35,126 bases of DNA from a virus (lineage: Duplodnaviria; Heunggongvirae; Uroviricota; Caudoviricetes). A model generated the notes under the pieces. The model saw only the letters and a program-made list of their open reading frames with translations, had not been told where the DNA came from and made no database searches. A program made the position numbers and the translations under genes. Of this stretch, positions 698 through 33,379 are shown piece after piece. The first letter of the stretch is position 1. Each line of letters starts with the position of its first letter. Where the stretch lies: the IMG/VR virus record IMGVR_UViG_2619619134_000012; one strand, given 5' to 3'.

Positions 698-1060
698 GGG
701 GCTGATTCTGGATTCGACGGGATTTGCGAAACCCAAGGTGCATGCCGAGGGGCGGTTGGCCTCGTAAAAAGCCGCAAAAAATAGTCGCAAACGACGAAAA
801 CTACGCTTTAGCAGCTTAATAACCTGCTTAGAGCCCTCTCTCCCTAGCCTCCGCTCTTAGGACGGGGATCAAGAGAGGTCAAACCCAAAAGAGATCGCGT
901 GGAAGCCCTGCCTGGGGTTGAAGCGTTAAAACTTAATCAGGCTAGTTTGTTAGTGGCGTGTCCGTCCGCAGCTGGCAAGCGAATGTAAAGACTGACTAAG
1001 CATGTAGTACCGAGGATGTAGGAATTTCGGACGCGGGTTCAACTCCCGCCAGCTCCACCA
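698..1060 (+). ncRNA. ssrA: tmRNA (transfer-messenger RNA, 10Sa RNA)
   Basis: 363 nt starting GGGGCTGATTCTGGATTCGACGGG and ending in the tRNA-like ...GGTTCAACTCCCGCCAGCTCCACCA; internal tag reading frame 787-819 GCAAACGACGAAAACTACGCTTTAGCAGCTTAA encodes ANDENYALAA-stop. Confidence 0.95.
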
Positions 1061-1061
1061 A
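1016..1061. repeat. attL: 46-bp att core at the 3' end of ssrA (ATGTAGGAATTTCGGACGCGGGTTCAACTCCCGCCAGCTCCACCAA)
   Basis: Exact 46-bp direct repeat of 33334-33379; sequence diverges immediately on both sides of both copies. Confidence 0.8.
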
Positions 1062-1070
1062 ATAAAACAA

Positions 1071-1103
1071 GGGGTTACGTGAAAGCGTAGCCCCTTTTTC
1101 TTT
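1071..1103 (+). terminator. Rho-independent terminator after the reconstituted ssrA
   Basis: Stem GGGGTTACG / CGTAGCCCC (one G-U pair) with loop TGAAAG, followed by TTTTTCTTT. Confidence 0.6.
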
Positions 1104-1155
1104 GATAGTGGCGACAAAATGGCGGCAAGCATTTATCGATTAAAGGACTACAGAT

Positions 1156-1533
1156 ATGAATAAACCTCTAATAGCCTTATTGCTCATCACCAGCTTCAGC
1201 GCATCTGCTGACAAAATCCCATCTTCTATCCAAAACCTGATTGCTGTTTACGACACCAGGACGCACAGCCTAGAAGATGGTGAGCTTACTATCAGATATA
1301 ACAAACGACTTTTGCTGGTAGATGCAGCTGAATCGATGTTCCAAGGCATCTGTAATGATTATTATATGAACAATTGGAAACCTGGCACGATCAAGAGAAT
1401 TACACTTCTTAATGTCACTAGCGATCAGGGCTTTGAAATCAATGCTGGAGGGGATGAGTGTAGAAAAGCTGGCACAATGAAAGACGAGCAGGCGCGCACC
1501 TATAGAACCAGCTTTATTAAACCTCTTCAATAA
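1156..1533 (+). CDS. Small secreted protein of unknown function (prophage-end cargo)
   Basis: 125-aa ORF with a typical signal peptide MNKPLIALLLITSFSASA|DK; AGGA ribosome-binding site upstream; AT-rich relative to the prophage core; sits between attL and ogr. Confidence 0.5.
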   Translation: MNKPLIALLLITSFSASADKIPSSIQNLIAVYDTRTHSLEDGELTIRYNKRLLLVDAAESMFQGICNDYYMNNWKPGTIKRITLLNVTSDQGFEINAGGDECRKAGTMKDEQARTYRTSFIKPLQ

Positions 1534-1619
1534 TGAAGTTTAATGAAATCCATGATTTTCTTTGGTTTCTTTCGGCATTCCTCCCGTTTCTTTTTGAGGA
1601 AGAATGCCATCAACTTACC

Positions 1620-1838
1620 TTAAAAATTCATGTGCCCTTGCCCACTCACTGTTGGATGTGGAGGAGCGTTATTTACCAATGCTGGCGTAACTATAAAGCG
1701 CACTACCGTTTCATGGGTGACAAAGGTGCTACCACAGTTAATGTTCTGGCACTGGCAGTAACGCTCTTTTGTGCTGTCCGTAACCTGAAAGCTGCTCCTA
1801 GTGTGCGCTGAGTGTCCACACTTTGGACAATTCATCAT
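1620..1838 (-). CDS. ogr: Ogr/Delta-family zinc-finger late-gene transcription activator
   Basis: MMNCPKCGHSAHTRSSFQVTDSTKERYCQCQNINCGSTFVTHETVVRF... shows the C-X2-C-X22-C-X4-C finger and clear similarity to P2 Ogr; start placed at the internal ATG with a GGAG site upstream; lies downstream of D as in P2. Confidence 0.8.
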   Translation of the reverse strand: MMNCPKCGHSAHTRSSFQVTDSTKERYCQCQNINCGSTFVTHETVVRFIVTPALVNNAPPHPTVSGQGHMNF

Positions 1839-1905
1839 TTTAAGTTTCTCCGCCGCCATTAAGTTCTCAATAATGATACACAATAAATTATTATTAAGAA
1901 CTTAT

Positions 1906-3006
1906 TTATTCTATTTCTAAATCATCAATCTTTACCTCAAGCTCCAGACTGGTAGTAAAACCATTATCCGGGCTGACCGTATGCGTCAACGTTGTAATGG
2001 TCCATTCGGCATCGTCGATAGGCTGTTTAAAGCCGCTCACCTTTACTGGCATTTCGGTGTAGAGATCTGCCCGGCCCTCTGCGAGCTGCAGCGAGAATGA
2101 CGCAACCCCACGCTGCAGGCGCTCCCATTGCATTTTTGCCGCACGCTCAGCATTGCTGCGGTTTGCGTAAGTACGATTTAGAACCAGTACGTTTTCATCC
2201 GTTCCCACCAGATAATCACCCTGTTTTGCTTCTGGCTCTTTTGGCGCGGTGGTTTTCTTCCGACGGCGCTTAACCTTGATTGTTTCTTTTTTCTTGGGTT
2301 CGCGGGTATGCAGCCAGCTGGCAATTACGCCGGTATAGGCACCACGATCAGCCAGGGTAAAACGATGACCGTCACCGACTTTACGCTCAATGGTGATAAC
2401 CGGCAGCGGCTTACCGCTCGCCGTTTTTCCCTGCCCCTGCCGGATAAACAACAGGTTTCCATCCTTAACGGAAGCAATCGCCCCATACTGGCGCGCCAGC
2501 TTCATCAGGAAACTGGCATCGCTTTCATTGGTCTGGTCCATGTGATCCAGCGCCTTGTCCGTCAGGTCTTTACCCAGCGCCATTTTGAGGTTATGCCGCG
2601 CTGCGATTTCCTTTACCACATCGCCAACGGTTGTCTGGTGCCATGACTTTTCGCGCCGGGTATTGAGGGTTTCACGGAAATCAGCGCTACGGGCACGGAT
2701 AGTCAGACGATCAGGAGCACCGCTGTGCTCAATCTCATCGACAGTAAACGCCCCTTTCGGGAAAAGCGGCTGTCCTTTCCACCCCAGCGCCAGCTGAATA
2801 ACAGCACCACGTCGCGGCAGAACGATCTGCCCGTCGGCGTCGTCCAGCTCCAGATCAAGTTGGTCAGCCTCAAAACCCCGGTTATCGGTCAGCGTCAGAC
2901 TCATCAGGCGCGCATCCAGCGCGGTTGTCACGTCCTTACCTTCAATAGTGATACTGAAAGCCGGGCTTTTGCTGTTCAGGTCAAAAAGATCAGAGCTAAA
3001 ATTCAC
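1906..3006 (-). CDS. D: Tail protein D (late control gene D family)
   Basis: 366-aa ORF with the gene order and sequence features of P2 gpD; overlaps the U stop codon. Confidence 0.85.
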   Translation of the reverse strand: MNFSSDLFDLNSKSPAFSITIEGKDVTTALDARLMSLTLTDNRGFEADQLDLELDDADGQIVLPRRGAVIQLALGWKGQPLFPKGAFTVDEIEHSGAPDRLTIRARSADFRETLNTRREKSWHQTTVGDVVKEIAARHNLKMALGKDLTDKALDHMDQTNESDASFLMKLARQYGAIASVKDGNLLFIRQGQGKTASGKPLPVITIERKVGDGHRFTLADRGAYTGVIASWLHTREPKKKETIKVKRRRKKTTAPKEPEAKQGDYLVGTDENVLVLNRTYANRSNAERAAKMQWERLQRGVASFSLQLAEGRADLYTEMPVKVSGFKQPIDDAEWTITTLTHTVSPDNGFTTSLELEVKIDDLEIE

Positions 3007-3488
3007 TGCAGCAACCCTCCAACAGTATTTTTAATATTACCTATCGCAGACGTTGCAGAGTCCTGCAGGTTACTGAGCTGATCGCTGAGACTGCCGAACA
3101 TATCAGACAGCGACTCATCAACCCTTTTCAGGGTCAGCGTAAACTCAATACGGCGAGGCATTCCGCTTTCAAAAAATTCCATTTTTGTCTGACTCAGGCT
3201 CTCGATTACAAACATGCCGTAAATGGTCCCGCTACCCTCAATCAGGGGCCATGCTTTGCCCAGCTCTGCCATTTGCTCCAGCGCGAGCAATGACAGCCTG
3301 CCCCCGGTGACTTCCGGCAGCAGTACGCCAGATAACGTCAGCGAGTCATTATCCGGGCCAAGAAACTGCGTTGATGGTCGCCGGTTCACCCGACTGTTGA
3401 CGGCGTGTCGCCAGCTTCGCTGATACTGCAGCTCCTGATATGGCACTGTGCGCAGCATGAAGACATATAACCCCAGCACCATCATCAT
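3003..3488 (-). CDS. U: Tail protein U
   Basis: 161-aa ORF at the P2 gpU position, translationally coupled to T and D. Confidence 0.8.
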   Translation of the reverse strand: MMMVLGLYVFMLRTVPYQELQYQRSWRHAVNSRVNRRPSTQFLGPDNDSLTLSGVLLPEVTGGRLSLLALEQMAELGKAWPLIEGSGTIYGMFVIESLSQTKMEFFESGMPRRIEFTLTLKRVDESLSDMFGSLSDQLSNLQDSATSAIGNIKNTVGGLLQ

Positions 3489-6268
3489 GATTCATATCCC
3501 CCTTGATCACTGAAATTACTGCGCGCTTTAGCCCTGGTCTTGCGCTCGCGTTCGTCAAGCTGTCGGGCAACTTCACGGGCAATATCTTGCGCACTCTGCC
3601 CTGGCTGAGCATAGATAGTGATCGGCGCGTGAGTTTCAAAGTGCATCACTGGCGGCGCGCTGGCAGATTTCGCAGGCTGGCTTTGTTTATATGCCACAGT
3701 AGGCAGACTGTAAGGATGTAGTGGAGCAGCCTCTGCAGGCGCTGCCGCTACGCCCATGACGCCTGCAACGACGGAAGCCAGCGCGGCAGTACGCCGCCTA
3801 CTGGTCACATGTGCGGGGCCGTTCACAATTTCAGGGCCGTTCTCCCCAACAATACCGAACTGACCGCGCGGAATAATCCCACCACTGTCATACATCCCGG
3901 CAAACGGAACCGCAGCAGCCGCTGCTTCACCAACCACCTGCACCTGTGCTTTATTTTGTGTTTTATTATTTCCGGTCATCCAGTCAGGCAGATAATCGGT
4001 GACTGAGGAAAGCTTGCTTTTGAGTGTCTCCCATTTGGCATTAATTCCATTGAGAATGCTGTCAATAATGGCGCTGCCCATGTCCTGAAACTTCGCAGGA
4101 AGCGCGGCAACATCAGCTAGGATCGAATTCCATTTATCACTAATAGATTGTCTGATATTGGCCCACGCCTCAGAAACGCCAGATTTTATTGCATCCCAAT
4201 TTTTAGCTATTAATCCCGGCAAGGTATAATTAAAGAACAGTGACTTAATCCCCTCCCACGCGGCGCTGGCCTTTTCTTTAATCCAATCCCATGCCGTACC
4301 TGTGGCATTACATACGGCATCCCACATGGCCTTGAACTTTGGCCCAAGCGTGTCCCAGTTCTGCCAGATATAAATAGCACCAGCGGCGATCAGCCCTATG
4401 ACAGCCAGTATAGGGTTTGCAAACATCAATCGGCCCAGCCATAAAACTGATTTCCCGATCCCTCCCAGCGCAGCACGAACCAAGCCACCCACCGATGCGA
4501 ACTTCAGGCCCAACATGCCCGCGCTCACTCTGATGATTGCCATCGGACCAAGGATTGATGCCAGCACCAAAGAGATAGCCCCTACAGCCGTTGCAGCAAC
4601 GGCAAATCCTGCAGCCATCTTGAATAAGGCAGACGTAAGCGAGGGATGGCGTTTGACAAAACCGTCCAAACGAGAGGCTAACTCCCCCAGCCAATCGGCG
4701 AGGTTCTTTAATGCAGGTGCTACGGTTTCACCAATACTCGCCATCGCATTAGTGAATGTCCCGGTAGCAGCCTCCCATTTATTCCCCAGGGTGTTCAGCG
4801 ATGCATCAACACGCTCCCTAAGCGATGCCTGATTTTCAAGCTTTGCTGCAGTTTCTCTATATCCTTCAATCCCTTTGGATAGCATAATGTTCAGCGCTTG
4901 TAGCGTTTCCGCATCATTGCCAAACAAATCTTTCATGGTTGCCATTTGGGTTTCTGGATTTAATTTTTTAAGTTTCTCCAGCTGAGCGTACATATTTTCC
5001 AGACCACCAAACCCACCCTTCCCGTCAGAGAAGTTGAATTTAATACCCGCGCCCTTTTCTTTCAGGTCATCGTTAACCGCCTTAATATTGTCAGCATCCA
5101 GAGCGGCCTGAAAAATCTTTCGGTATGCATTACCGGCAGACTCACCAGCCATACTCCCCTGATCAGCCATAACTAACAAAGGCGCGAAAGTTTTGACCGC
5201 TTCCAACCCCTTCTTATTGATGATATTCATCGCGCTGCTGATTTTTGAGAACCCCTGCAGCATATTTCCTGAATCTACCCCCGCGTAGAATCCTTTCTGG
5301 ATCACGTCCATCAGATTCATCATGTCTTTTTCGGAGGTCTGAGTAGCATCTTGTAACTTAGCCGCAAACTCAGCTGCTGCAGTGGGAGCCATCTGTAACT
5401 GCACGCCAAGATAAGCTGCTGACTCTCCCAAGCCGCCCAGGATGACCTGCGCCGACATACCCTGACGGCGTAGCATAGTCATCATGTTCTGAAAGTCGGC
5501 TGTTGTTCCCGGCAGCTTATCGCCCAAAGCAACTGCAAGCCGGTTAATTTTTTCAAATTCAGGCGCTACCTTTCCGCCCGGTCCCATCATTGAACCGGCG
5601 AGCTGATTCGCTGCATTTTCTGATTCTGAATAGGCTTTTACTGGAGCCAACAACGTCATGCCAGTAGTTACCCCAGCCGCCATCGCCCCTGCACCATTAC
5701 CTGCCAGAGAGTTCCTTAACTCGCGGGTCTTTTCAGCCTTGGCTTTGATGGCGTTGAGCTTTCGCTGACGCTCGCCAACTTCACGCAGCCTGCGCTCCTG
5801 CTCAGCCAACTGTCGGTTATACCGCTCAGTTTCTCGTGCAATCCGTGCCGTCTCACGCGCTCCGCCCCCAGCAGATAACCCCAGCCGATAAAGCTCAGCC
5901 CTGGCTGCCGCCATCTGGCGAGTTTCCTGTTGCTGTTTTTGTTCAAGACGTGAAACAGCACGCCACTGAGCTTCCAGCGCCTGCGTTTGTTTTTTTGTCG
6001 GGGATTCCAAAGATGACATTTCGCGCGTCATCATTTGAGCGCGTAGCCTCGCCTGATCCAGTTCGGCACCAGTACGGCTAACACTTTTAGTTAGTTGATC
6101 GAAAGATTTAAGCTGACCTCCAGCATCACTCAGCTTTTTAATCTGATCGCGGGTTTGTCGAATAGCTGATGCCAGCTCCTTAGAGCCAGCCTGTGCATTT
6201 TTAAATGGGCGGGTTAACTTATCCACCGCCCCCAGAACTACCTGCAGTCGCAAGTTATTATCACTCAT
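3485..6268 (-). CDS. T: Tail tape measure protein
   Basis: About 927 aa, coiled-coil-rich middle and hydrophobic segments typical of tape measure proteins; start placed at ATG 6268 (MSDNNLRLQ...) overlapping the E' stop; the ORF track's upstream start 6316 is less likely. Confidence 0.8.
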   Translation of the reverse strand: MSDNNLRLQVVLGAVDKLTRPFKNAQAGSKELASAIRQTRDQIKKLSDAGGQLKSFDQLTKSVSRTGAELDQARLRAQMMTREMSSLESPTKKQTQALEAQWRAVSRLEQKQQQETRQMAAARAELYRLGLSAGGGARETARIARETERYNRQLAEQERRLREVGERQRKLNAIKAKAEKTRELRNSLAGNGAGAMAAGVTTGMTLLAPVKAYSESENAANQLAGSMMGPGGKVAPEFEKINRLAVALGDKLPGTTADFQNMMTMLRRQGMSAQVILGGLGESAAYLGVQLQMAPTAAAEFAAKLQDATQTSEKDMMNLMDVIQKGFYAGVDSGNMLQGFSKISSAMNIINKKGLEAVKTFAPLLVMADQGSMAGESAGNAYRKIFQAALDADNIKAVNDDLKEKGAGIKFNFSDGKGGFGGLENMYAQLEKLKKLNPETQMATMKDLFGNDAETLQALNIMLSKGIEGYRETAAKLENQASLRERVDASLNTLGNKWEAATGTFTNAMASIGETVAPALKNLADWLGELASRLDGFVKRHPSLTSALFKMAAGFAVAATAVGAISLVLASILGPMAIIRVSAGMLGLKFASVGGLVRAALGGIGKSVLWLGRLMFANPILAVIGLIAAGAIYIWQNWDTLGPKFKAMWDAVCNATGTAWDWIKEKASAAWEGIKSLFFNYTLPGLIAKNWDAIKSGVSEAWANIRQSISDKWNSILADVAALPAKFQDMGSAIIDSILNGINAKWETLKSKLSSVTDYLPDWMTGNNKTQNKAQVQVVGEAAAAAVPFAGMYDSGGIIPRGQFGIVGENGPEIVNGPAHVTSRRRTAALASVVAGVMGVAAAPAEAAPLHPYSLPTVAYKQSQPAKSASAPPVMHFETHAPITIYAQPGQSAQDIAREVARQLDERERKTRAKARSNFSDQGGYES

Positions 6269-6697
6269 CGCTTGCCCCGCTTCTCTGAATTGCCTTATGC
6301 CGCCACTCCAGCACATCAGTCAGCGGCATAACGTCAGTGATGGACGGCGACCAGTGAAAGATGGTGGCAATATCTGCCACCAGATCATCAACCGTCAGGT
6401 TGTCGGCAAATCGACAAGCACCGACTTCGGCAACAAAAAAGTCACCACCTCTACAGCCATTGCTGTCAGATCGGCGGGGTCCAGCTCTGCCATTTCCTGC
6501 GCGGTCAGCGTCGGAGTGGAGATTCGCGGGATCACAGTCATCATCGCGCCCACGTCCATATCCATAATGGCCTGCAGACGGGTGCCACGCAGTGCGCCGG
6601 ACTGCGGCTTGCGCAGCACAATTTCGGTAATTTCAGTTTTACCGCGCATGATGGGGGTATCCAGTTTTACGGTCTTTTCAGTCAGCTTGTCGCTCAT
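6261..6697 (-). CDS. Tail assembly chaperone E+E' (predicted -1 programmed frameshift product)
   Basis: After the slippery heptamer the -1 frame stays open for 57 codons (VAEVGACRFADNL...RSGASDE) and stops at TGA 6261-6263, overlapping the T start, as in the P2 E/E+E' arrangement. Confidence 0.5.
6395..6697 (-). CDS. E: Tail assembly chaperone E
   Basis: 100-aa ORF immediately upstream of T at the P2 gpE position; ends ...VVTFLLPKSVLVDLPTT and contains the slippery heptamer. Confidence 0.8.
   Translation of the reverse strand: MSDKLTEKTVKLDTPIMRGKTEITEIVLRKPQSGALRGTRLQAIMDMDVGAMMTVIPRISTPTLTAQEMAELDPADLTAMAVEVVTFLLPKSVLVDLPTT
6434..6440 (-). other. Slippery heptamer T TTT TTG (X XXY YYZ) for -1 ribosomal frameshifting
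   Basis: Minus-strand ACT TTT TTG near the 3' end of E; plus strand reads CAAAAAA. Confidence 0.55.
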
Positions 6698-6751
6698 GTT
6701 CGTATCCTGTTAATGAAATACTGGCGCGGCTGCCCGCGCCGTTAAGGTTAA

Positions 6752-7267
6752 TCAGAGGCCGAGGGCATTACGGTGTTCTTCCATCAGATCCACGCCGTCA
6801 ACGATTTCAACCATGTTGACCAGATCGACCTCATAGAGCACCTCACCGTTAATGGTCAGCTTCGCGTAGCTGTTAGTACTGCTGACCTTGGTGGCGCTAC
6901 TCTCGCCGGTTTTCCACTCGCCGGAATCCACTTCTTTATGACGTCCGCGCACAACCAGCTCAACGGCCTGCACTTCGCCAGTATCGTCACGCTGAATAGA
7001 GCCGGTGAAACGCAGCTGGATGCCGTCAACGGTTGCCTTGCCCATCTGCTTGAATAACAGCAGTTCGGTGCCGCCGATTGAAAATTCCGTGTCCAGTGCG
7101 CCGTCATCCAGCCCCATGTCCACATCCACCGCGCCCGGCATACCGCCGCCGCGATACTTCTCAAACTTGCGGGTGAATTTCGGCAGGGTCAGAGACTCGA
7201 CAATCCCCTGCCAGTTGTTCCCGTCGTTGAACAGGTTCAGGTGTTTTAACTTACGTGGTAAAGCCAT
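6752..7267 (-). CDS. FII: Tail tube protein FII
   Basis: 171-aa ORF recognisably similar to P2 gpFII (MALPRKLKHLNLFNDGNNWQGIVESLTLPKF...). Confidence 0.9.
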   Translation of the reverse strand: MALPRKLKHLNLFNDGNNWQGIVESLTLPKFTRKFEKYRGGGMPGAVDVDMGLDDGALDTEFSIGGTELLLFKQMGKATVDGIQLRFTGSIQRDDTGEVQAVELVVRGRHKEVDSGEWKTGESSATKVSSTNSYAKLTINGEVLYEVDLVNMVEIVDGVDLMEEHRNALGL

Positions 7268-7276
7268 GGTGTCCCC

Positions 7277-8449
7277 TTACGCGCTGACCTGGCTGGAGAA
7301 ATCCAGCAGGTACTGATCGGTGATGCGCTGGCGCAGCATCAGGTTTTCAAGCGGCGGCACCGGCGTGTAGTCGTAGTCGATAGTGAGTTTCCCTGCTTTC
7401 AGGGAGTCTTTATCGTTCACCGACTCATCCAGCCAGCAGTCTGCACCGATGATGTAGCCCTGCGTTTTCAGGCTGCGCAGCTTGGCGCGGATACCTTCGA
7501 TAATGTCACGGGCCAGCGATGGGTTGAGCACGCCATCCACCGCCCACATGTGCGCTTCAGCGATGGTGTCAGCCAGCACCTGCGCCGTGCGGGTGTAGTT
7601 CTCAAAGGCAAACAGCGGATCGTCACTGAGGCAGCGGGAACCCCAGAAGCGGAAGCCGTCTTTGCGGATAAGCGTGGTGACGTCATTCTGGTTGAGCAGT
7701 CCCGCATCAGTTGCCGGGTCCTGCAGATCCCAGAACACATCAGCGGAAATGCCGGTGACACCGTTCACGCCCACGTTGGACAGGGTCTTGTGCCAGCCGG
7801 TCTGCTCGTCAATTTTGGCTCGCAGGCCGAGCGCACGGGCGGAGGCGTAAGCTGTCGCGTCTGCATTCAGCACAGTGTCAAAGTTGATAAAGTCAGGCCA
7901 GATCAGCATCCCCTCGCGCTGGCTGAAATTGTCCCGGTAAGCAATGGCTTCCTCCACCGTCTTGCAGCCATAGGCAGACAGGTAGGCAAACCCGCGCAGA
8001 CTCTGCGCCACGCTCAGCAGCTCAGTGGCAACCGCCTGCGTGTCGTGTCCCGGCACACCGAGAATGCGCGGCTTGACACCGAGCTGCGACTGCGCCGATA
8101 GCAGCGCTTTCATGCCCGTTTTTTTACCGTCAGCAGTCACACCGCCGATAATGTTGGAGGTGGTTTCCGCTTCGGTTTCGCCCTGCGCCACGCGCACAAC
8201 GACGGTCACGGGTTTAGCCTGGTCTGCAATCGCATCCAGCGAACGGGCCAGCGTGCCGGACTCTCCCGCTTTGCCGCTGGCGGTCAGCACATCGGTCAGC
8301 AGAATCGGCTTGTTGAGGGGAAACATGGACGCATCAGCATCATCGCCGGTGCAGACCATGCCCACGATGGCGGTGCTCACCGTGGTAATGGATCGGGTGC
8401 CCTCGTTGATTTCAACAACGCGCACCCCGTGGTGGTAATCCTGAGCCAT
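7277..8449 (-). CDS. FI: Contractile tail sheath protein FI
   Basis: 390-aa ORF recognisably similar to P2 gpFI ([32 protein letters not shown]...). Confidence 0.9.
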
Positions 8450-8525
8450 AGCGGCGAACCTCCTGATTGGAATAGGCTTCGCCCTATGTTGTATTGATTA
8501 CGTCACGCAGACAGCTGTGCGGCGT

Positions 8526-9930: not shown

Positions 9931-9937
9931 ATAGAAA

Positions 9938-9962: not shown

Positions 9963-9977
9963 CTATGAGATAAAATT

Positions 9978-19590: not shown

Positions 19591-19606
19591 CGGGTTTTAT
19601 GCTCCA

Positions 19607-25364: not shown

Positions 25365-27764
25365 TTAGTACCATTGACGCCATTTGTCATCTTCCTGCAG
25401 CCTCTGGTTACGGTAAAAAATACGTAAACCGGCACCGGATGGAATGCTGCCGCCACGCAGAAGCAAATCAATCTCAGATGCACTACCTTCAAACCCTCTG
25501 GCAGTCAGTTCTGCCTCAAGCTGCAGGCGCTGCTGCTCCGAAATACTCTGTATGTATGCTTTTTTCCGCTTCGGTTTTACCAGTCTCAACCTGGCTGTCA
25601 GCTCCCGCCGTTCCTTCTGGCCCATGTTGTGGAGATATTCCTGCAGCTCCTTCTCATCCATGGTTTTAATATCGGGTAAATCACCCCCTGATTTGTTCAG
25701 ATTTTCAACAGGGGGACAGTTATTGCCACGAGTCCAAGGGGCGCAAGCGCCCTGGTCGGCTGCCGCCTCCTGAACGTCAACGGCCTTACGAACCTTTTTC
25801 CACTTCATCGCGTGCGTGCAAATCTTGCCCTCTGCAATCGGGGACCAGATGCCATAGATACGGATACCGTGATCGCCGTAGGCGCTCGGTTCGTCGTTAA
25901 GCTCATAAGCAGTGCGGACAAGGTGATGTTTGCGGGGAACCAGTACACCGCCCTGCTTCATGATGTAGGTGGCAAAGCAACCCGCATCTGCAGCCGCCAG
26001 TACCGCATCCAGACGTGGATTATCCAGTACAGGCGCACCCGCTTTGCGTTCGCCCTGTACTCTCGCCGCCTGACCAGCCAGCAAGCGCAGCTCGCGGTAT
26101 GCCTGGCGCCCCGGAATACCAAAGAAACGAAATTGCTGGACACGGTGCAGTGACGCCCAGGCGCTGACATGCTCGGCGCTGTCACGCAGTGATCTGCCGG
26201 TTTCTTTGCTGATTTCTTTAGCCAGCCCGCGCCCGTCGATGTTCTTACTGATGTATTTGGCGATGTAGCTTGTCGGTGTGCCCTTGCGCGGGTTGATTAG
26301 CTCGGACTTGAAGCGCGGTCCGGTATTGGTGCCCAGCTCCTCGCGGTCTTCACGGATGGCAAACTTTCGCAGCAGCGCGGTGATGGAACGACGGTCTTTT
26401 TTGCGCATAAAGCACAGAAGATGCCAGTGCACAGTGCCGTCATGGTGCGGCTCTGCAACGCGGACGCCGTACCAGCGCAGCCCGGCTTTGTGCATGGCCT
26501 TGCGGAAAGCGGCGAATGTATCAACCAGATAGTCACTGCTCTGCCGGACCGTGGCGCTGGTCCATTTCGGATTAGGTCTGCCGTTGTTGAGGGTTGCGTG
26601 GAAGCGTGACGGGCAGGTGATGGTATAGAACACGGCGCAGTCTCCGCGCATTTCCGCGATCAGCTCCAGCCCTTTAACACAGGCCATCATTTCATTACGG
26701 CGGTGCGCCGGGTTGCTGTTGCTGGCGTTCACCACATCTTCCATATCCAGCGTGTCACCGTCTTCGTTGACCAGTTCATGCGAGCGGAAGAACTCCAGCG
26801 ATTTGCGGCGCTGCTCGCGTTTGTGGATCACGGCTTCATAGCTGACATACGGGGACGCTTTCTTGTTGACCAGGCAGACGGCGCGCAGCTGCCCCCCCCG
26901 CCACTCGCAGCGCATCTGCCACAATTTGCGATACCACCAGTCCGCGCACAGCATGCGAGCCAGCGACGGTGGGATCAGTTCATAAGGCACCGACTTGCGG
27001 CGGCGCTTTTTGCGGCGCAACTGCTCAAAGGCAGGCGGGATGACCTCAAGGCGCATGGCTTCTGCTGCAACCCTTTCCCATGCCTGGCGGATTTCTTCTG
27101 GTTTAACATCGTCACTGACAAACAGATCACTGCAGGCCGTATCAAGACACATGCTCATATGTGCCGCAACCAGCGTGGAAAGGCGCTTTACCTGCTCCTG
27201 ATTCATTTCAGGCAGTACCAGCAACCCCTCCAGCCCGTCCTGGATCGCCATGAACCGGAAAGACGCAGACACCTGGCTGTCACGCACGCGCTCCAGCCGC
27301 TCCAGACAAGGCCTGATTGTTTCGCGCAGATAGCGGGAATAAGCTTTAGCCCTGCCCAGGCTATGGAAGTATTTAATCCGCTCCAGCAAAGGCTTGCTGA
27401 TATGGGCAGGCATGGCGCTAACATCGGCAATAATCACCAAATCGGGATTAACGCGCTGCTGTTCGCGGGCCATTTTGGCATGGCTAATCAGCCGATCCTG
27501 CTCCATTTCACGCTGGACAGGATCGCGGGATTCATTAAAGAAATAGAGTTCCCAAACCTCATCACTCAGCGCCTCACGGCGCAGATGCTCCTGCTCGTTA
27601 TCCGCAGCATACAGAGTGATGAGGTTTGAAAGCGCAGACTCCGGCGCAACGTCCGCCGGTTCCAGATACGGATTAACCGCTTTTTTTGTGGTATTCCATG
27701 GAAAGGCTGCGGCGGCCTCATTCGAGCCGCCGGTCGCCGCCATTTCGAAGCTGGTCAACTTCAC
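25365..27764 (-). CDS. A: Replication initiation protein A (rolling-circle nickase)
   Basis: 799-aa ORF with P2 gpA-type motifs ([22 protein letters not shown]; [12 protein letters not shown]); exact start uncertain. Confidence 0.85.
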
Positions 27765-27816
27765 AGGCCAGCCCCCATCATGTAAGACTTGACGAATACT
27801 ACTGCCGCCTCTGCGT

Positions 27817-28761
27817 TTAAGGCGTTTCCGTAGGTTCGAATTCGTCCCACTCTGGAGGCAGCCCCATTAACCAAAGGCTCAAGGCCGGATTTAACTGGCC
27901 TCCATTTTCCATCTGTGCATTTGAGCCAGTCAGCATCTTTCCAGAAGCCGTTAACCGGACCGGGCCTGCAATCTGTGCCACCACATCCAGACGATCTGTC
28001 GATATTTTCCCTTTGCGAATCCTCCCCCCAGGATCCCCCCCCCCTTGTGGTCGCTGGCTGTTGGCGTGGGCCAGCCAGCCATTTTTACCTGTTGCGCAAG
28101 GCTGCTGCCGGACATGCCCTCGGTAATCCCTCGCCCTCCCCGCCTGCTGTCGCTGGCACTCGGAGTTGTCCAGCCCGAAAGCTGCGCAGCTGTCTGCAAG
28201 TTCAATCCTCCCTGACGGCCCGCGTTGCTGGGATGCTTCCAGGCATTCGCTGTTGGTGTGGACCACCCAATAAGTTCTGTCCCGGATGTTCGGGGCACCG
28301 ACGCTCGCAGCCGGAAACGCACTCGCCCCGAAGGCATAACCCAAGGCTTCCACGTCAGTCTGTACAAGGTCGATCCAGTCATTTGCGTCAGCACTTGCAG
28401 ATTGCTCGCCAAAGACAACGACAGGGCGACGCTGCCCGACCAACCAATGCATGGCGGGCCATAAGTGCCGCTCGTCAGCAAACCCTTTTCCTTTGCCTGC
28501 CGCGCTGAAAGGCTGGCATGGGCAGGAACCTGTCCAGACTTCTCTGCTGTCTTCCCAGCCCACACGGCGCAGGGCATATGACCAAATGCCAACCCCTGCA
28601 AAGAAATGGACCTGAGCAAATCCTCGTAAATCATCGGGTCTGACATCTTCAATACTCCTTTCATCTACAACACCCGGCATAATGCGACCGGCAGCCATGT
28701 GTACGCGCAGCCGCGCAGCTGCAAACGGGTCTATCTCGTTGTAATAAGCCCACGCACTCAC
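27817..28761 (-). CDS. DNA (cytosine-5) methyltransferase-like protein; coding frame ambiguous (possible frameshift or phase-variable gene)
   Basis: Frame starting at GTG 28761 carries C5-methyltransferase motifs I ([12 protein letters not shown]), IV ([15 protein letters not shown]), VIII ([13 protein letters not shown]) and a motif IX-like C-terminus ([19 protein letters not shown]); an overlapping second frame and a G10 tract complicate the call. Confidence 0.45.
27951..28664 (-). other. Alternative-frame ORF (237 aa) fully overlapping the methyltransferase-like gene, with three tandem GW[STP]TP[TS]A repeats
   Basis: Open across about 700 nt in a second frame; tandem repeat units start near 28279, 28175 and 28077 (period about 100 nt); passes through the G10 tract. 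Confidence 0.3.
28035..28044. repeat. Homopolymer tract C10 (G10 on the coding strand) inside the methyltransferase-like gene
   Basis: Plus strand ...GGATCCCCCCCCCCTTGTGG...; a second C6 run lies at 28024-28029. Confidence 0.9.
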
Positions 28762-29615
28762 GCCTGCACCTCATACTTAACGCAGCAATCAGGACCGCCA
28801 GCAGGATCAAAACCAATCCAGTGATGAGGTTTAGAAGTAGCGATGATTTCCACGGCGGACTTACCATCACCGGCAGCCACACCCATGCTGCGCTTTGCCG
28901 TCAGCCGATAGCGGGAGAAATTGCGATAAAGAGAACGGGTCAAAGATGTATCACTGTTGGACACAATGACCGGATGACCTTCTGATGAACGACGCTCAAG
29001 AATAGACGCCAGATGATACTGATCATCCTCAGTAAATCCGGCGGTGTGATAACCGGTAAACGTTCCGTCATATGGCGGATCGCAATAAACCACATCACCA
29101 GTCTTCAGCAGTGCCAGTGTTTCCTCATAGCTGGCACAGATAAACGTTGCACGTTGTGCCTTTTCTGCAAAAGCGCGTATTTCGTTTTCGGGGAAGTACG
29201 GATTTTTATAATTACCGTAAGGAACATTAAAGTGACCACTCAAGTTATAGCGGCACAGTCCGCGATAACAATGGCGATTAAGATAAATAAACATGGCTGC
29301 GCGGCAATCCACAGGCCAATCACGTCCATGGTTAAATTCTTTTCGAATATCGTAGTAATCCTCTGCCGATTTATTTTTAGCAAATAAATCCTTGCCAATT
29401 GAGATTAATAATTCAGGTCCGCTTTTAATGGCATTGTAAAGACTTATCAGATCTGGATTAATATCCGCGACAAGATAATGAGGATAGTCTGTCTCCATCA
29501 TCACAGCGCACGAACCCGCGAAAGGCTCAACCAGTCGCGGGCCTGCTGGAAGGTGTTTTTTCAGTTCTGGCATTATGGCGGTTTTATTACCCGCCCATTT
29601 CAGGATGGTGCTCAT
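28758..29615 (-). CDS. DNA adenine (N6) methyltransferase, Dam/D12 class
   Basis: Start at ATG 29615 ([18 protein letters not shown]...); motifs KWAGNK, FAGSCAV and DPPY; stop overlaps the start of the cytosine methyltransferase-like gene. Confidence 0.85.
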
Positions 29616-29839
29616 ACAGCCCCCCCTACGTAATGTTTGCCTTTCAGCTCTGCGATTTCCTGACAGGTGACGCAACACTGCACGCCCGGAATAGCGCGGC
29701 GGCGAGCTGGCGGGATCGGTGCATCGCAATCAATGCAGAGCACACGGGAAACGCCCGGTGTTCTGTTGCGGGCGGTGTGGATGTGGCGCTGACGTTCTTC
29801 TTCAACGCGCTGCTGTACAAGGTCCATTGAATCAGCCAT
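29612..29839 (-). CDS. TraR/DksA-family C4 zinc-finger protein
   Basis: 75 aa with CIDCDAPIP...CCVTCQ, a Cys4 arrangement typical of phage TraR-like proteins. Confidence 0.7.
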   Translation of the reverse strand: MADSMDLVQQRVEEERQRHIHTARNRTPGVSRVLCIDCDAPIPPARRRAIPGVQCCVTCQEIAELKGKHYVGGAV

Positions 29840-30072
29840 CAGTGGATCTCCTGTGCTTCGTTCTGAATGTTTTCAGCCGCAATACGCAGCAGCTCCGCCG
29901 CTTCAACGTGGTTAAGCTGACGTGACGTGATATGGCAAGCGAGGCTATCAAGACGGGCTGCCATTGCCGCGGCCCGTGCACGACGTTCTTCCATGCGTGC
30001 ATCAGTCTGCATCTGGTTAAGGCCAGCATCATCTGGTCCTGTTTTGGTGATACGGGTTTCAATATTTCGCAT
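29839..30072 (-). CDS. Hypothetical early-region protein (77 aa)
   Basis: ORF translationally coupled to the TraR-like gene; no family recognised. Confidence 0.4.
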   Translation of the reverse strand: MRNIETRITKTGPDDAGLNQMQTDARMEERRARAAAMAARLDSLACHITSRQLNHVEAAELLRIAAENIQNEAQEIH

Positions 30073-30139
30073 TGTTGTTTCTCCTGAATTTGGGCAATAA
30101 GAAGCCCGGCGGGGTTACGCCTTTAATTTCGGTTGTTTG

Positions 30140-30481
30140 TTAATTCGGCATGGCTAGCCGATTTGGAAATAAACTCACCACTGTACGGAAATGGTTCATT
30201 GCTTTAATCAGCTCCCGCTTTTCGTCAGTCGTCAGCTCACTAACATTGACGCTATGACGTTCCGCCGGAATCTTTGCCATAAAGAATATTGCGGCTAGTG
30301 CGCGTTTATTCTGCTCATGGTTAATATCCCGTTGGTCCCGCATATCGCTAATAAAGCGCTCCAGTTCTGAATCAATATTTAAGCCAAACACTTTCGCCCT
30401 TAATTCCGCGATGTGGTTTAACCCATTAAGGCGGAGGCCAGCGCTTAGCGGAACAGTCGCTGCATCGCCTTCAATAGCCAT
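30140..30481 (-). CDS. Hypothetical early-region protein (113 aa)
   Basis: ORF on the early (pR-side) strand; no family recognised. Confidence 0.4.
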   Translation of the reverse strand: MAIEGDAATVPLSAGLRLNGLNHIAELRAKVFGLNIDSELERFISDMRDQRDINHEQNKRALAAIFFMAKIPAERHSVNVSELTTDEKRELIKAMNHFRTVVSLFPNRLAMPN

Positions 30482-30651
30482 GGTTTCCTCTGCTTTTTAG
30501 TAGACAGTTCAGCCAGCAGCGCATCCTGAGAGCGGCACGGGTGCCAGCGCTTGCCATCCTTCCCCATAATCCAGCCATGACCGCAGTGCATTGCAGGACT
30601 TTGCTTAACGAGCAGTGATGCAAAAGATGGTTCTTTAGTCAGCATAACCAC
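30445..30651 (-). CDS. Hypothetical small protein downstream of cII (68 aa)
   Basis: ORF directly after cII where phage 186 carries small early genes; not recognised with certainty. Confidence 0.35.
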   Translation of the reverse strand: MVMLTKEPSFASLLVKQSPAMHCGHGWIMGKDGKRWHPCRSQDALLAELSTKKQRKPWLLKAMQRLFR

Positions 30652-30652
30652 C

Positions 30653-31162
30653 TCAGATCAGACCGAACGAAGCGCCGAGGCCCGTCACGGTATCTACTGC
30701 GCTTGCCATCGCCGGATTAGCCTGCAAACGCGCATGCAATGAAACTGCAGTGAGTGCCATAAGGCGCGTAACAGAGTTGATGCTATTGATCACATCGCGG
30801 CGGCCTGCACTGGTTTTCACATCACCGGATACTGCGCCTGCAGCTACACGCCCAATCTCCGCAGTTGCACTCATGACGTAATGCGGCAGGTTCTCTTTTG
30901 CCACTTCATTCAATGGCACGCACGGCAGGCAATGGATTTGAGCCAGAAAACCGTCAACCAGCGTGGAGTCCTCAGTAAGATCGGTAAGCAGCCAAATTTC
31001 CGACGGCGTGAGCTGATGCGGTTGCTCCGGGTTCAGTTTGTTACGCAGCGTCTGGACGTTCATTCCCGCACGTTCTGCCAGCTTCGCCATGTTGTGACGC
31101 AGCGCAAAAGCCCGGCAGGCTTCATCAAAATGCGGATGTTTGGAAATCTTATAATCAAACAT
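30653..31162 (-). CDS. cII: CII-like transcriptional activator (phage 186 CII family)
   Basis: 169 aa (MFDYKISKHPHFDEACRAFALRHNMAKLAERAGMNVQTLRNKLNPEQPHQ...) recognisably 186 CII-like with a helix-turn-helix region. Confidence 0.75.
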   Translation of the reverse strand: MFDYKISKHPHFDEACRAFALRHNMAKLAERAGMNVQTLRNKLNPEQPHQLTPSEIWLLTDLTEDSTLVDGFLAQIHCLPCVPLNEVAKENLPHYVMSATAEIGRVAAGAVSGDVKTSAGRRDVINSINSVTRLMALTAVSLHARLQANPAMASAVDTVTGLGASFGLI

Positions 31163-31194
31163 GCAAGCCCCTTAGAAAGTTCTCATAATTGAAC

Positions 31195-31437
31195 TTACAG
31201 ACCAACAATGACGCGAAAGTTGGAATGACCGAGGGATTCACGAACCTGATCCGTTTTGTACATCAGGTAACGCAGGCTTACGCGCCCCTTGTTTTTATCC
31301 TTTTTAACCATGTATTTAGCCAGCTTACCATGGTGGATTTTTTGATAAACAGAACCGCGTGAAATGCCTTCCCATTCGGCGAATTCTGCAGGCGTAGCCA
31401 TCTCTTTTGGTACACGAATTGAAATATCAGTGCTCAT
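31195..31437 (-). CDS. apl: Apl/Cox-like excisionase and switch regulator (helix-turn-helix)
   Basis: 80-aa helix-turn-helix protein (ATPAEFAEWEGISRGSVYQKIHHGKL), first gene of the rightward early operon, divergent from cI. Confidence 0.6.
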   Translation of the reverse strand: MSTDISIRVPKEMATPAEFAEWEGISRGSVYQKIHHGKLAKYMVKKDKNKGRVSLRYLMYKTDQVRESLGHSNFRVIVGL

Positions 31438-31556
31438 AGTGCAGTATCTCTCAGTTAAGGTTTGGTTTATGTCGTTTTATCTTGTTTTATACGATTCAAT
31501 ACTTGAACAATCGAGATACTACGATCCAATATTTGATACGTCAATAGGATTAAAAA
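31438..31556. promoter_or_regulatory. Lysis-lysogeny switch region (face-to-face promoters and candidate operators between apl and cI)
   Basis: AT-rich 119-bp intergenic region between divergent apl and cI, with short direct repeats (GTTTTAT x2) and inverted repeats (TTCAA-TACT-TGAA; ATCG-N8-CGAT). Confidence 0.4.
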
Positions 31557-32189
31557 ATGATACAGGTGAAAGCTGGCGAGAATACAGGGGGTAGAGAGGC
31601 TATCCATAGGTTGATGGCGGCCTATGATTTCAAGTCCAGACAGCAGCTATGCGATCACCTAGGCGCATCTAAAAGCACCATGGCAAACAGATACTTAAGG
31701 GACAGCTTTCCTGCAGAATGGGTGATCCAATGCGCTCTTGAAACAGGCGTTTCGTTACTCTGGCTAACCACAGGGCAAGGCGAACCAGGAGCAAAAATTG
31801 ATGATAAAAAAAGTATCAATATCGTGAACTCCAGCAAGGTTAAACCTCTTTCTGAACTTATATCGCCAGAGATCGACAAGGCTACCCTTATGGGAGGTTC
31901 GTTGGTTGAAGCCGGGAAGGCCATCATTGATAGCAGCCTGCTTCCCCCTGACTCAAACGAGCTGCTTCTCGTAAATACCACTGGCGATTCATATTTAGTT
32001 GACCGTAACCAGACACCACCAGTGAATGGGATGTGGTTGGTCGATATCGACGGGATAAAAAGCATTGTTAAGCTAACTCGCCTTCCGGGAAACAGATTAG
32101 TTGTGCATCAAGATGACTCTTCGTTTGAGTGCAGCCTGGATGATATCGAGGTTGTTGGCCGCGCATTGAAAATTATTAAGAGCCTTTGA
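31557..32189 (+). CDS. cI: CI-like immunity repressor (phage 186 CI family)
   Basis: 210-aa ORF with helix-turn-helix region AAYDFKSRQQLCDHLGASKSTMANRYLRD and CALETGVSLLWLTTGQGE; immediately upstream of int as in the 186 cI-int operon. Confidence 0.75.
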   Translation: MIQVKAGENTGGREAIHRLMAAYDFKSRQQLCDHLGASKSTMANRYLRDSFPAEWVIQCALETGVSLLWLTTGQGEPGAKIDDKKSINIVNSSKVKPLSELISPEIDKATLMGGSLVEAGKAIIDSSLLPPDSNELLLVNTTGDSYLVDRNQTPPVNGMWLVDIDGIKSIVKLTRLPGNRLVVHQDDSSFECSLDDIEVVGRALKIIKSL

Positions 32190-32190
32190 T

Positions 32191-33216
32191 ATGACCATCA
32201 GAAAACAGCCGAACGGAAAATGGTTGTGCGAGTGTTACCCGAACGGGCGTGACGGTAAGCGCGTGCGCAAGCAATTTGCGACAAAGGGCGAGGCTGTAGC
32301 ATTCGAAAACTTCACCATGGATGAAGTGAACAAAAAGCCGTGGCTGGGTGAAAAGGAAGATCGGCGGCGTTTGTCAGAATTGATTGAGCAGTGGCATTCA
32401 CTTTATGGGCAGACGCTGGCTGACCCCAAACGCCTTATGGCAAAACTCAGCATTATTTGTAATGGCCTTGGTGATCCCATCGCCTCAGAGTTAACCGCAG
32501 GCGATTTTACGAAATACCGGGAAGCACGTCTAAAAGGTGAAGTAAAAAATGAAGATGGCGTGCTTATGTCGCCAGTTAAACCCCGCACGGTAAACCTTGA
32601 GCAACGCAACCTATCCTCTGTTTTTGGCACGCTGAAAAAGCTGGGCCATTGGTCAGCCCCAAACCCGCTAGCCGGTCTGCCAACATTCAAAATTGCCGAA
32701 GGTGAATTGGCGTTCCTAGCCCCGGAAGAAATTAAACGCCTGCTGGATTCCTGTGCTGAATCTCAAAGCCCCAGCTTACTGATGATTGCAAAAGTATGCC
32801 TAGCCACTGGTGCACGATGGAGTGAAGCAGAAAACCTACAAGGACACCAGCTGTCGAAATATCGCATCACCTACACCAAGACCAAAGGCAAGAAAAACAG
32901 AACCGTGCCAATATCACAAGATCTGTATGACGAACTACCCAAGAACAGAGGGAAGTTATTCACGCCATGTAGAAAAGCCTTTGAGCGCGCAGTGAAGCGG
33001 GCCGGAATCGATCTGCCAGAGGGTCAATGTACTCATGTGCTGCGCCATACATTCGCCAGCCATTTTATGATGAACGGCGGAAACATACTGGTGCTGCGCG
33101 ATATTCTAGGCCATGCCGATATAAAAATGACAATGGTATATGCTCACTTTGCACCCGATCACCTCGAAGATGCAGTGACAAAAAACCCGCTTCACAATCT
33201 CAACTGGAAGCGCTAA
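32191..33216 (+). CDS. int: Tyrosine integrase of the prophage
   Basis: 341 aa with the C-terminal catalytic region HVLRHTFASHFMMNGGNILVLRDILGHADIKMTMVYAH; adjacent to the right att repeat. Confidence 0.9.
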   Translation: MTIRKQPNGKWLCECYPNGRDGKRVRKQFATKGEAVAFENFTMDEVNKKPWLGEKEDRRRLSELIEQWHSLYGQTLADPKRLMAKLSIICNGLGDPIASELTAGDFTKYREARLKGEVKNEDGVLMSPVKPRTVNLEQRNLSSVFGTLKKLGHWSAPNPLAGLPTFKIAEGELAFLAPEEIKRLLDSCAESQSPSLLMIAKVCLATGARWSEAENLQGHQLSKYRITYTKTKGKKNRTVPISQDLYDELPKNRGKLFTPCRKAFERAVKRAGIDLPEGQCTHVLRHTFASHFMMNGGNILVLRDILGHADIKMTMVYAHFAPDHLEDAVTKNPLHNLNWKR

Positions 33217-33333
33217 TTTATGGCGGCATTTTGGCGGCAGAGCATTAAAAACGCATAAAACGGACAAACACCAAATAACACTAACCCACTGTTTCTAAAG
33301 GTAACTCACTGTTTTTATTATACTAAAAATGGT

Positions 33334-33379
33334 ATGTAGGAATTTCGGACGCGGGTTCAACTCCCGCCAGCTCCACCAA
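33334..33379. repeat. attR: displaced 3' end of ssrA (46-bp core repeat)
   Basis: Identical to 1016-1061; followed by a terminator hairpin and a second integrase. Confidence 0.8.

Follow-up and report, generated by a model that had tools for sequence, protein, structure and literature searches.

Phages of the Fels-2 group are the closest described relatives of the element reported here. Fels-2 and SopEPhi integrate into the tmRNA gene ssrA without altering it (PMC3448106; PMC10107115 Table 1). Insertions of this type can be recognised by the Islander signature, in which an intact tDNA and a displaced 3' fragment in direct orientation have the integrase gene between them (PMC4383910). A different kind of element, the cryptic prophage CP4-57 of E. 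coli K-12, has been reported to excise; when islands of this type excise, ssrA is normally left with the inactivating delta-T357 scar and the ribosome-rescue pathway of the cell is switched (PMC10107115).

The DNA analysed here (the window, 35,126 nucleotides in all) contains an ssrA locus at which both kinds of element appear to be present. The reading preferred, to which a probability of about 93% is given, is that a temperate P2/186-like phage of the Fels-2 group has integrated in the 3' end of the E. coli tmRNA gene, between ssrA and a resident island of the P4 type.

The tmRNA gene and its 46-bp repeat

Intact ssrA lies at 698-1060 (+ strand), downstream of the host gene smpB (1-483, + strand; an ORF whose counterpart is annotated as smpB in E. 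coli genomes with 100% identity to this region) and of a promoter-like site at 654-683. ARAGORN placed a tmRNA with the tag peptide ANDENYALAA at exactly these positions, Rfam RF00023 matched them with 295.8 bits as a full-length, untruncated hit, and the gene is identical to ssrA of E. coli K-12 at all 363 of 363 positions. A preliminary description of the locus, made from the sequence and its open reading frames, had reported an identical 46-bp sequence at 1016-1061 and 33334-33379 and had taken it for the 3' end of ssrA plus one base. The repeat search recovered precisely this direct repeat, ATGTAGGAATTTCGGACGCGGGTTCAACTCCCGCCAGCTCCACCAA, with both copies exact and on the + strand. As the full-length tmRNA was placed at 698-1060, the left copy consists of the last 45 nt of ssrA and one further base; in the tmRNA structure it supplies 17 nt of the 3' strand of helix P2, the T arm, the 3' acceptor strand and the CCA. 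No direct repeat of the window is longer than this block, whose copies start 32,318 bp apart, and their identity ends on both sides (g/t before, a/t after). No further copy was found in the window even with 3 mismatches allowed, and 100 shuffles gave 0 matches.

The same description had proposed the two copies as attL and attR and had suggested a comparison with an ssrA locus lacking the prophage. Both junctions were reconstructed in silico. Joining the phage-side arms gave a predicted attP that is colinear with the attP of SEN8, MLG42 and Fels-2. In SEN8 and MLG42, whose genomes are known in excised or virion form, the sequence runs from int through a P arm of ~115 bp into the same 46 bp and then into the terminator and P' arm found in the window from 1062 onward, and the 24+23 bp annotated as attP in the Fels-2 record (a 47-bp core) contain the identical 46 bp. 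Deletion of 1062-33379 gave a predicted attB junction of 1,201 bp, which is found at 100% identity in ML35, G4/9 and numerous further complete E. coli genomes; matches to the junction cover 80% or more of it in 973 complete E. coli genomes. To the right of the second copy the window continues exactly as in these empty-site genomes. The two tests confirmed, at the level of sequence, the copies as the attL core (1016-1061, + strand) and attR (33334-33379, + strand) of a prophage, attR being the displaced 3' fragment of ssrA. This right copy presumably doubles as attL for the next island. The Islander signature is seen in full, with ssrA at 698-1060, int at 32191-33216 and the fragment at 33334-33379 in the same orientation as ssrA.

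A chance or non-phage origin of the repeat was ruled out by the shuffles, the phage attP matches and the attB match. It is barely conceivable, moreover, that the repeat came from the P4-type island or from some other duplication and that the true phage ends lie elsewhere. Islands at ssrA do likewise leave 3' fragments of the gene, but the fragment left by P4-type islands is just ~14 bp long, the full 46 bp is found together with both phage arms inside free phage genomes, and the sequence shortened by exactly one repeat unit is found at 100% identity in real genomes. Junctions of the same attL type occur in ~230 of 5,426 complete E. coli genomes, and strain 160-11H1 carries an independent, diverged relative of the prophage between the same two 46-bp copies, adjoining the same island integrase.

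The left copy had also been described as completing a functional ssrA and being followed by a phage-side terminator, which agrees with what was found, the completed gene being functional in appearance. A terminator scan located an intrinsic terminator at 1069-1103 (+ strand), with a hairpin at 1069-1096 (fold -21.2 kcal/mol, z = -5.95) and a T run, and this terminator directly follows the core in the attP of SEN8, MLG42 and Fels-2. It is phage-borne and now serves ssrA.

The motif TGGCGRCA occurs 11 times in the window, where 4.2 matches would be expected, and four of the 11 form two tandem pairs flanking the core. In the P' arm two TGGCGRCA repeats lie 11 bp apart at 1109-1127 (+ strand) and are kept in relatives; in the P arm two TGGCGGCA repeats, also 11 bp apart, lie at 33221-33239 (+ strand). 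By analogy with the attP organisation of P2-like phages (PMC3448106), both pairs are candidate arm-type sites for Int. Strand exchange is predicted to fall towards the left (5') side of the 46-bp block, within roughly its first 7-15 bp (1016-1030). A scan of GTDB genomes with the P-arm/core junction found two loci, in Enterobacter bugandensis and a Citrobacter sp., each with the attR side alone; one has a C-to-G change in the ssrA fragment, which is uninformative on the crossover point because the matching attL is absent.

The following course of events is proposed. The tyrosine integrase of the phage would recombine attP with attB at the 3' end of ssrA and, since attP carries the last 45 nt of ssrA plus one base, one 46-bp copy would come to lie at each end of the prophage. 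At attL an unchanged ssrA would be rebuilt, ending now in the terminator brought by the phage, and attR would hold the displaced 3' fragment. Excision would need Int and Apl acting on both copies and would restore ssrA exactly. The predicted attP and attB junction sequences can be used for PCR, and the coordinates of the prophage (1062-33379, one genome equivalent) and of both att cores are exact to the base.

Gene content and intactness of the prophage

The preliminary estimate of about 32.4 kb is borne out: one phage-genome equivalent occupies 32,318 bp, or 32,364 bp with both repeat copies. By megablast and a gene-by-gene tblastn map it is of the Fels-2 / P2-186 type. The megablast search, for which the left 24 kb were used, gave 90-92% identity over 68-76% to MLG42, SEN8, SopEPhi and Fels-2, and the map was made by tblastn of the SEN8 and Fels-2 proteins against the window. 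It also upheld the earlier impression of a complete gene set, as the P2-type core genes are all full length and syntenic and align in single pieces with no frameshifts.

An ogr/B-type late-gene activator is encoded at 1623-1838 (- strand; 73.6% identical to Fels-2 Ogr, Pfam Ogr_Delta 3e-20). An ORF at 1533-1811 (+ strand) overlaps ogr on the opposite strand and was rejected as a gene. The late genes for tail, lysis and head follow at 1906-20440 (- strand; tblastn map, with Pfam for T, G and the cargo gene) and comprise D, U, T, E/E', FII, FI, G, H, I, J, W, V, S, R, LysC/B/A, endolysin, holin, X, L, M, N, O. They give full-length single alignments at 79-100% identity, the exceptions being G, the C-terminus of H and the tape-measure gene T, which is just 33% identical to that of SEN8. 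Within this region lies one cargo gene on the other strand (8743-9930, + strand, Pfam). The packaging operon (20583-24123, + strand; tblastn, Pfam) comprises terminase P, an extra terminase-ATPase-like ORF (22349-23074) and portal Q; the extra ORF is also present in the isolated phage MLG42. A cos site at 24285-24303 (- strand), between Q and a DinI-like gene, agrees at all 19 nt with the cos annotated in SEN8.

A LexA-box-like palindrome, CTGTTTATATAAACAG, with 2 matches where 0.29 would be expected, is found at 25255-25270 (+ strand), upstream of a 62-aa ORF and the DinI-like gene on the - strand. The region resembles the tum-type SOS module of phage 186, and by this analogy induction may proceed through a LexA-controlled, tum-like module. 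The early and replication genes at 25365-31162 (- strand; tblastn, Pfam) encode a gpA endonuclease, a C5-methylase-like protein, Dam, a DksA-type Zn finger, DUF2732, DUF5347, Fil and CII. A switch of the 186 type (CI, Apl, CII) has int downstream of cI, and its proteins are 92-99% identical to those of SEN8. The apl gene (31195-31437, - strand), for the 186-type excisionase and lytic repressor, is 98.7% identical to the SEN8 protein annotated excisionase/Apl, and cI (31557-32189, + strand; Pfam Phage_CI_repr and Phage_CI_C), for the 186-type immunity repressor, is 91.9% identical to SEN8 CI. The P2-type tyrosine integrase gene int (32191-33216, + strand; Pfam Int_N and Phage_integrase) adjoins the right copy, as had been stated, with attR beginning 117 bp past its stop codon. 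Int is 97.4% identical to SEN8 Int over 341 aa and the catalytic motifs are intact in the translation (..ATGARWSE.., HVLRH, LGH, MVYAH).

Although these boundaries would be right in either case, the prophage could be cryptic or defective, giving neither excision nor particles, with the repeat only a scar. The strongly divergent tape measure, the extra terminase-like ORF between P and Q and the acyltransferase in place of an invertase and alternative fibre module could be taken as signs of decay, and no identical phage has been isolated. The core genes, however, are full length and unbroken, the two att copies are 100% identical, cos is exact and the catalytic motifs of Int are intact, and MLG42, an isolated phage, has the extra ORF too. 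A defective prophage is therefore considered rather unlikely. A search of complete E. coli genomes through the attR junction, which four of them cover in full, found no identical prophage, the best match being 91% identical; as the exact prophage was not found, viability cannot be transferred from an identical characterised phage. Judged by its intactness, the prophage is probably still active.

The second element at ssrA

The hairpin at 33414-33441 and its T run form a terminator (33414-33447, + strand) that had been described as the apparent ancestral terminator of ssrA. This was right in that it lay beside ssrA and would have served it before the phage arrived, but the terminator belongs to an island with a P4-type integrase and not to the ancestral host. 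It is homologous to a hairpin annotated inside CP4-57 in K-12 and is absent from island-free E. coli.

The integrase of this second element is encoded at 33545-34774 (+ strand; Pfam Arm-DNA-bind_3, Phage_int_M, Phage_integrase), a gene on which the preliminary description is silent. It is 49% identical to K-12 IntA and 100% identical to the integrase of strains G4/9, ML35 and 160-11H1. An IS1 copy (34796-35126, + strand; insA, Pfam Zn_ribbon_InsA and HTH_Tnp_IS1) begins 22 bp after the integrase stop codon and runs off the window; its end at 34796 was placed by what we take to be the IS1 terminal repeat.

In 1,385 complete E. coli genomes ssrA is joined straight to the ypjA flank, with neither island nor integrase. 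Immediately ahead of ypjA, the same island in G4/9 and 160-11H1 terminates in a degenerate piece of ssrA, CGCCAGCCCACCAA, and CP4-57 has exactly this end in K-12. The ML35 island was dropped for defining this far end, as it is rearranged by IS3 copies; the cargo of the ML35 and 160-11H1 islands includes recombinase and ParB-like genes. Strain 160-11H1 has the same arrangement as the window, with all three ssrA copies present. The right flank of the window contributes an Arm-DNA-bind_3 integrase of the CP4-57-like kind, and the distal fragment, which accompanies the identical integrase in G4/9 and 160-11H1, would lie beyond the window.

The DNA right of the prophage is thus a second, older integrated island and not the original chromosome. 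The contrary case, in which everything from 33380 onward, terminator included, is ancestral chromosome and the locus holds one mobile element, could draw on the good terminator and on the 973 E. coli genomes in which this flank stands directly beside ssrA. It is nevertheless very improbable, given the 1,385 genomes that join ssrA to ypjA without flank sequence or integrase, the P4-type integrase with which the flank starts, the CGCCAGCCCACCAA end before ypjA and the annotation of the homologous K-12 terminator inside CP4-57, an element reported to excise (PMC10107115). Because the right terminator stands on a second island and so many genomes are island-free, the locus is most probably a tandem array at ssrA: the island with its P4-type integrase would already have been in place, and entry of the phage between ssrA and this island would have produced the array. 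The corrected right flank means that the locus should be annotated as ssrA, Fels-2-like phage and P4-type island, in tandem.

A tentative and rather doubtful suggestion is that a prophage in this position turns the attL of the island into a non-functional ssrA fragment, and so uncouples a known phage regulatory switch or makes it a two-step one. Were this so, excision of the island in such a lysogen would scar the displaced fragment alone and leave tmRNA intact, and the scar would reach functional ssrA only upon later excision of the phage. The IS1 copy adjoining the island integrase, and the position of the far end of the island outside the window, bear on this suggestion.

Comparison with known phages and islands

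Integration into the tmRNA gene that restores the gene and exchanges its terminator is a well-known arrangement, of which the locus is a textbook example, and it opens no new question. Fels-2 (Salmonella Typhimurium LT2; Felsduovirus Fels2, NC_010463) and SopEPhi share the target ssrA, the orientation ssrA-attL-ogr-D...CI-int-attR and the gene order. With Fels-2 the prophage further shares the phage-side terminator, both arms and the 46 bp within the 47-bp attP core. It differs from these two phages in its host, E. coli, in having an acyltransferase-3 gene in place of the DNA invertase and alternative tail-fibre module, in its divergent tape measure and extra terminase-like ORF, and in other genes beside attL and near gpA.

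The free phage genomes of SEN8, a Salmonella phage, and vB_YpM_MLG42, a Yersinia phage (both Peduoviridae), have an identical attP core and the same arms. SEN8 has the nearly identical Int and the identical cos 19-mer, and MLG42 is the best overall match and has the extra terminase-like ORF in common with the prophage; both show mosaic differences from it in cargo, tape-measure, fibre and methylase genes. The ICTV genus rule is ~70% nucleotide identity over the whole genome. Identity multiplied by coverage, for the left 24 kb only, is roughly 61% for Fels-2 and SEN8 (~90% x 68%), which are in Felsduovirus, and roughly 70% for MLG42 (91.8% x 76%), which, unlike them, is in Elveevirus.

Coliphage 186 resembles the prophage in its P2-type late genes, in a DinI/Tum-like module and in the type of its switch (CI, Apl, CII, Fil). 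Its integrase, too, uses a long common core to enter the 3' end of a tDNA (PMC3448106), but the targets are the isoleucine tRNA genes ileY/ileX and not ssrA (PMC3448106, Table 1). The downstream island differs from CP4-57 of K-12 in its integrase, at just 49% identity, in its other cargo and, in the window, in the IS1 after the integrase. Both nevertheless have a P4-type integrase straight after the 3' end of ssrA, with a homologous terminator hairpin before it, and the same degenerate CGCCAGCCCACCAA end before ypjA, seen for the island in related genomes.

The 46-bp repeat as attL and attR

The window contains two exact copies of the 46-mer ATGTAGGAATTTCGGACGCGGGTTCAACTCCCGCCAGCTCCACCAA, at 1016-1061 and 33334-33379, each in + orientation. 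No third copy was found in the window with three mismatches allowed, and 100 dinucleotide-preserving shuffles gave no match. The block is the longest direct repeat found; its two starts are 32,318 bp apart, and the identity breaks off abruptly at both of its ends. ARAGORN placed a single tmRNA gene, ssrA, at 698-1060 (Rfam 295.8 bits, full length), just downstream of smpB (1-483), and the left copy therefore consists of the final 45 nt of this gene and one further base. This ssrA is identical to that of K-12 (363/363). In the Rfam alignment the left copy corresponds to 17 nt from helix P2 (3' strand) together with the T arm (GCGGG/UUCAACU/CCCGC), the acceptor strand on the 3' side and CCA. The duplication of the ssrA 3' end reported in the preliminary description was thus found exactly as written by exact search, ARAGORN and Rfam.

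The same description had proposed the two copies as attL and attR, and both junctions were reconstructed in silico. For attP, 33217-33379 was joined to 1062-1160. The genome records of SEN8 and MLG42 have an uninterrupted attachment region in their interior, where the int stop is followed by about 115 bp, the identical 46 bp and finally 'ataaaacaaggggttacgtg...cccctttttc'; this last stretch is what the window has from 1062 onwards. The reconstructed attP aligned colinearly with those of SEN8, MLG42 and Fels-2; the Fels-2 record annotates attP as 24+23 bp, and the resulting 47 bp includes the 46 bp of the window. For attB, 1062-33379 was deleted with 600 bp retained on each side. ML35, G4/9 and many further complete genomes of E. 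coli match the resulting 1,201-bp junction at 100% identity, and at least 80% of its length is covered in 973 genomes. By these two independent in-silico tests, the copies are attL and attR. Strain 160-11H1 provides an independent case, with a diverged relative of the prophage between the same two 46-bp copies and an attR junction 91% identical to that of the window. Among 5,426 complete genomes of E. coli, about 230 have this same attL junction of ssrA plus phage arm.

On the phage side of attL there is a strong hairpin followed by a T run (1069-1103, -21.2 kcal/mol, z = -5.95), as the preliminary description had noted. This hairpin is kept in all four attP sequences (4/4), so the phage supplies a replacement terminator for the gene that it splits. 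In elements that integrate into tDNA, the identity block usually starts at the crossover and stops where the gene ends on its 3' side; strand exchange would therefore be expected near the left end of the 46-bp block, around 1016-1030. The octamer TGGCGRCA occurs 11 times in the window (4.2 expected), including pairs 11 bp apart in the P arm (33221/33232) and in the attL-side arm (1109/1120), and both pairs are conserved in relatives. Because an arm and core organisation has been described for the attachment sites of P2-like integrases (PMC3448106), these pairs are taken to be candidate arm-type sites for Int.

A second island to the right of attR

The terminator after the right copy had been described as apparently the ancestral one of ssrA. 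This hairpin with its T run (hairpin at 33414-33441) did adjoin ssrA before the phage arrived, as the empty-site genomes show, but it belongs to an island and not to the ancestral chromosome. An integrase of 409 aa (33545-34774; Arm-DNA-bind_3, Phage_int_M and Phage_integrase) starts 165 bp past the right copy. In G4/9, ML35 and 160-11H1 the integrase after ssrA is the same protein (100% identity). IntA of CP4-57, a cryptic prophage of K-12, is 49% identical to it, and a hairpin homologous to 33414-33441 is annotated within CP4-57. In G4/9 and 160-11H1 the degenerate ssrA fragment CGCCAGCCCACCAA closes the island with this integrase, immediately ahead of ypjA; CP4-57 likewise ends at a degenerate ssrA fragment before ypjA (the psaA pseudogene). 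Deletion of CP4-57 in silico from K-12 gave an ssrA-ypjA junction that was 100% identical to real genomes and at least 80% covered in one place in 1,385 complete E. coli genomes. In these the closest terminator-like hairpin lies about 130 nt downstream and is not the same one. The P4-type integrase, the CP4-57-like hairpin and end and the 1,385 island-free genomes together lead us to reject the right flank as ancestral chromosome.

An IS1 (InsA domains; 34796-35126, +) begins 22 bp after the island integrase stop, and the remainder of the island falls beyond the window. The slot holds a recombinase gene in ML35 and 160-11H1 and an IS3 in G4/9, so the content of the island varies between strains. 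At the ML35 locus (about 28600-34300) IS3 copies come after the ssrA island, with hemB and the tau genes beyond them in place of ypjA, which points to an IS3-mediated rearrangement.

With a second integrated element in its right flank, the locus is best read as a tandem array of ssrA, Fels-2-like phage and P4-type island, an arrangement known from tDNA sites (PMC4383910). Strain 160-11H1 is arranged alike and has all three ssrA copies. The phage most likely came after the island, entering the intact ssrA, to judge from two features of the sequences: the empty-site genomes already have the island at 100% identity, and its distal ssrA fragment, at about 14 bp, is too short to serve as a 46-bp attB. 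When one genome per GTDB species was scanned, an array of this kind turned up in Enterobacter bugandensis and in a Citrobacter species (strain FP75), where a Fels-2-type P arm and ssrA 3' fragment are followed by a left end of the K-12 CP4-57 type; the tandem thus recurs across genera. The E. bugandensis fragment carries a single C-to-G change (GGAGGCGGG). Excision of CP4-57-type islands leaves a delta-T357 scar (PMC10107115). It is conceivable, though doubtful, that the position of the phage would shield the functional ssrA from this scar; this is the only mildly novel reading of the locus.

Gene content of the prophage

Compared with phage records by megablast, 1062-25000 matched Yersinia phage MLG42, Salmonella phages SEN8, SopEPhi and RE2010, and Fels-2, at 90-92% identity across 68-76% of the query; the cII-apl-cI-int segment found its matches among the same phages. 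Against a genus threshold of about 70% over the whole genome, identity times coverage for the left 24 kb came to roughly 61% with Fels-2 and SEN8 and roughly 70% with MLG42, which is classified in Elveevirus, so that the prophage may belong to either Felsduovirus or Elveevirus. The annotated proteins of SEN8 and Fels-2, searched against the window with tblastn, gave a colinear, full-length map. It comprises the late gene activator ogr (1623-1838); tail genes D, U, T, E/E', FII, FI, G, H, I, J, W, V, S and R; lysis genes (LysC, LysB, LysA-like, endolysin and holin); head and packaging genes X, L, M, N, O, P and Q; and early and switch genes (DinI-like, gpA, Dam, three small early genes, Fil, CII, Apl, CI and Int). 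A 19-nt cos site (24285-24303) exactly matches that annotated in SEN8. Int (32191-33216; Pfam Int_N and Phage_integrase) is 97.4% identical to that of SEN8 and retains the R / H-x-x-R / H / Y motifs. The sequence therefore bears out the apparently complete gene set of the preliminary description.

A perfect LexA-box-like palindrome, CTGTTTATATAAACAG (CTGT-N8-ACAG, 25255-25270), lies upstream of a 62-aa ORF (25021-25206, -) and the DinI-like gene (24773-25006, -). By analogy, this arrangement suggests SOS induction of the 186 type, in which a Tum-like antirepressor would be controlled by LexA.

Comparison with Fels-2-like phages

Several slots differ from those of the relatives. Where Fels-2 and SEN8 have an invertase and alternative fibre genes, the window has an acyltransferase-3 / O-acetyltransferase-like gene (8743-9930, +; PF01757, phrog_3333) in a patch of 30% GC flanked by the tail sheath gene FI and the fibre-assembly gene G, a candidate lysogenic-conversion gene for surface polysaccharide acetylation. 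The tape-measure protein (943 aa; 3485-6316, -) shares only 33% identity with its SEN8 counterpart, whereas the flanking tail genes are 94-98% identical, and its gene is a sharp mosaic replacement. A C5-cytosine-methylase-like gene lies beside the phage Dam (D12 N6-adenine) methylase (27817-28761 and 28758-29729, both -); SEN8 instead has an exonuclease gene in the adjacent slot. Between terminase P and portal Q there is an extra terminase-like ORF (241 aa; 22349-23074, +; Terminase_6N ATPase domain) whose start and stop codons overlap both genes. As a paralogue of the ATPase domain of the terminase, it is 32% identical to P residues 145-368. Of 50,697 phage records searched, only MLG42 (95%) and, in part, E. 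coli phage 500465-1 had it, and it was not found in SEN8, Fels-2 or the 160-11H1 prophage. Right after attL, 1156-1533 (+) encodes a 125-aa protein with a signal-peptide-like N-terminus that matches phrog_3807 and has no Pfam match; this slot varies among relatives, and the 160-11H1 prophage has a BRCT-domain protein there.

The main interpretation of the preliminary description is supported, with the second island on the right as the single correction. In PMC3448106 (citing Pelludat et al. 2003) and in Table 1 of PMC10107115 (citing Williams 2003), Fels-2 and SopEPhi enter ssrA via a P2-type integrase and leave its 3' end unaltered. The window fits the Fels-2/SopEPhi family on every sequence-level defining feature tested, and the prophage is an ordinary addition to the well-known ssrA-integrated Fels-2-like phages.
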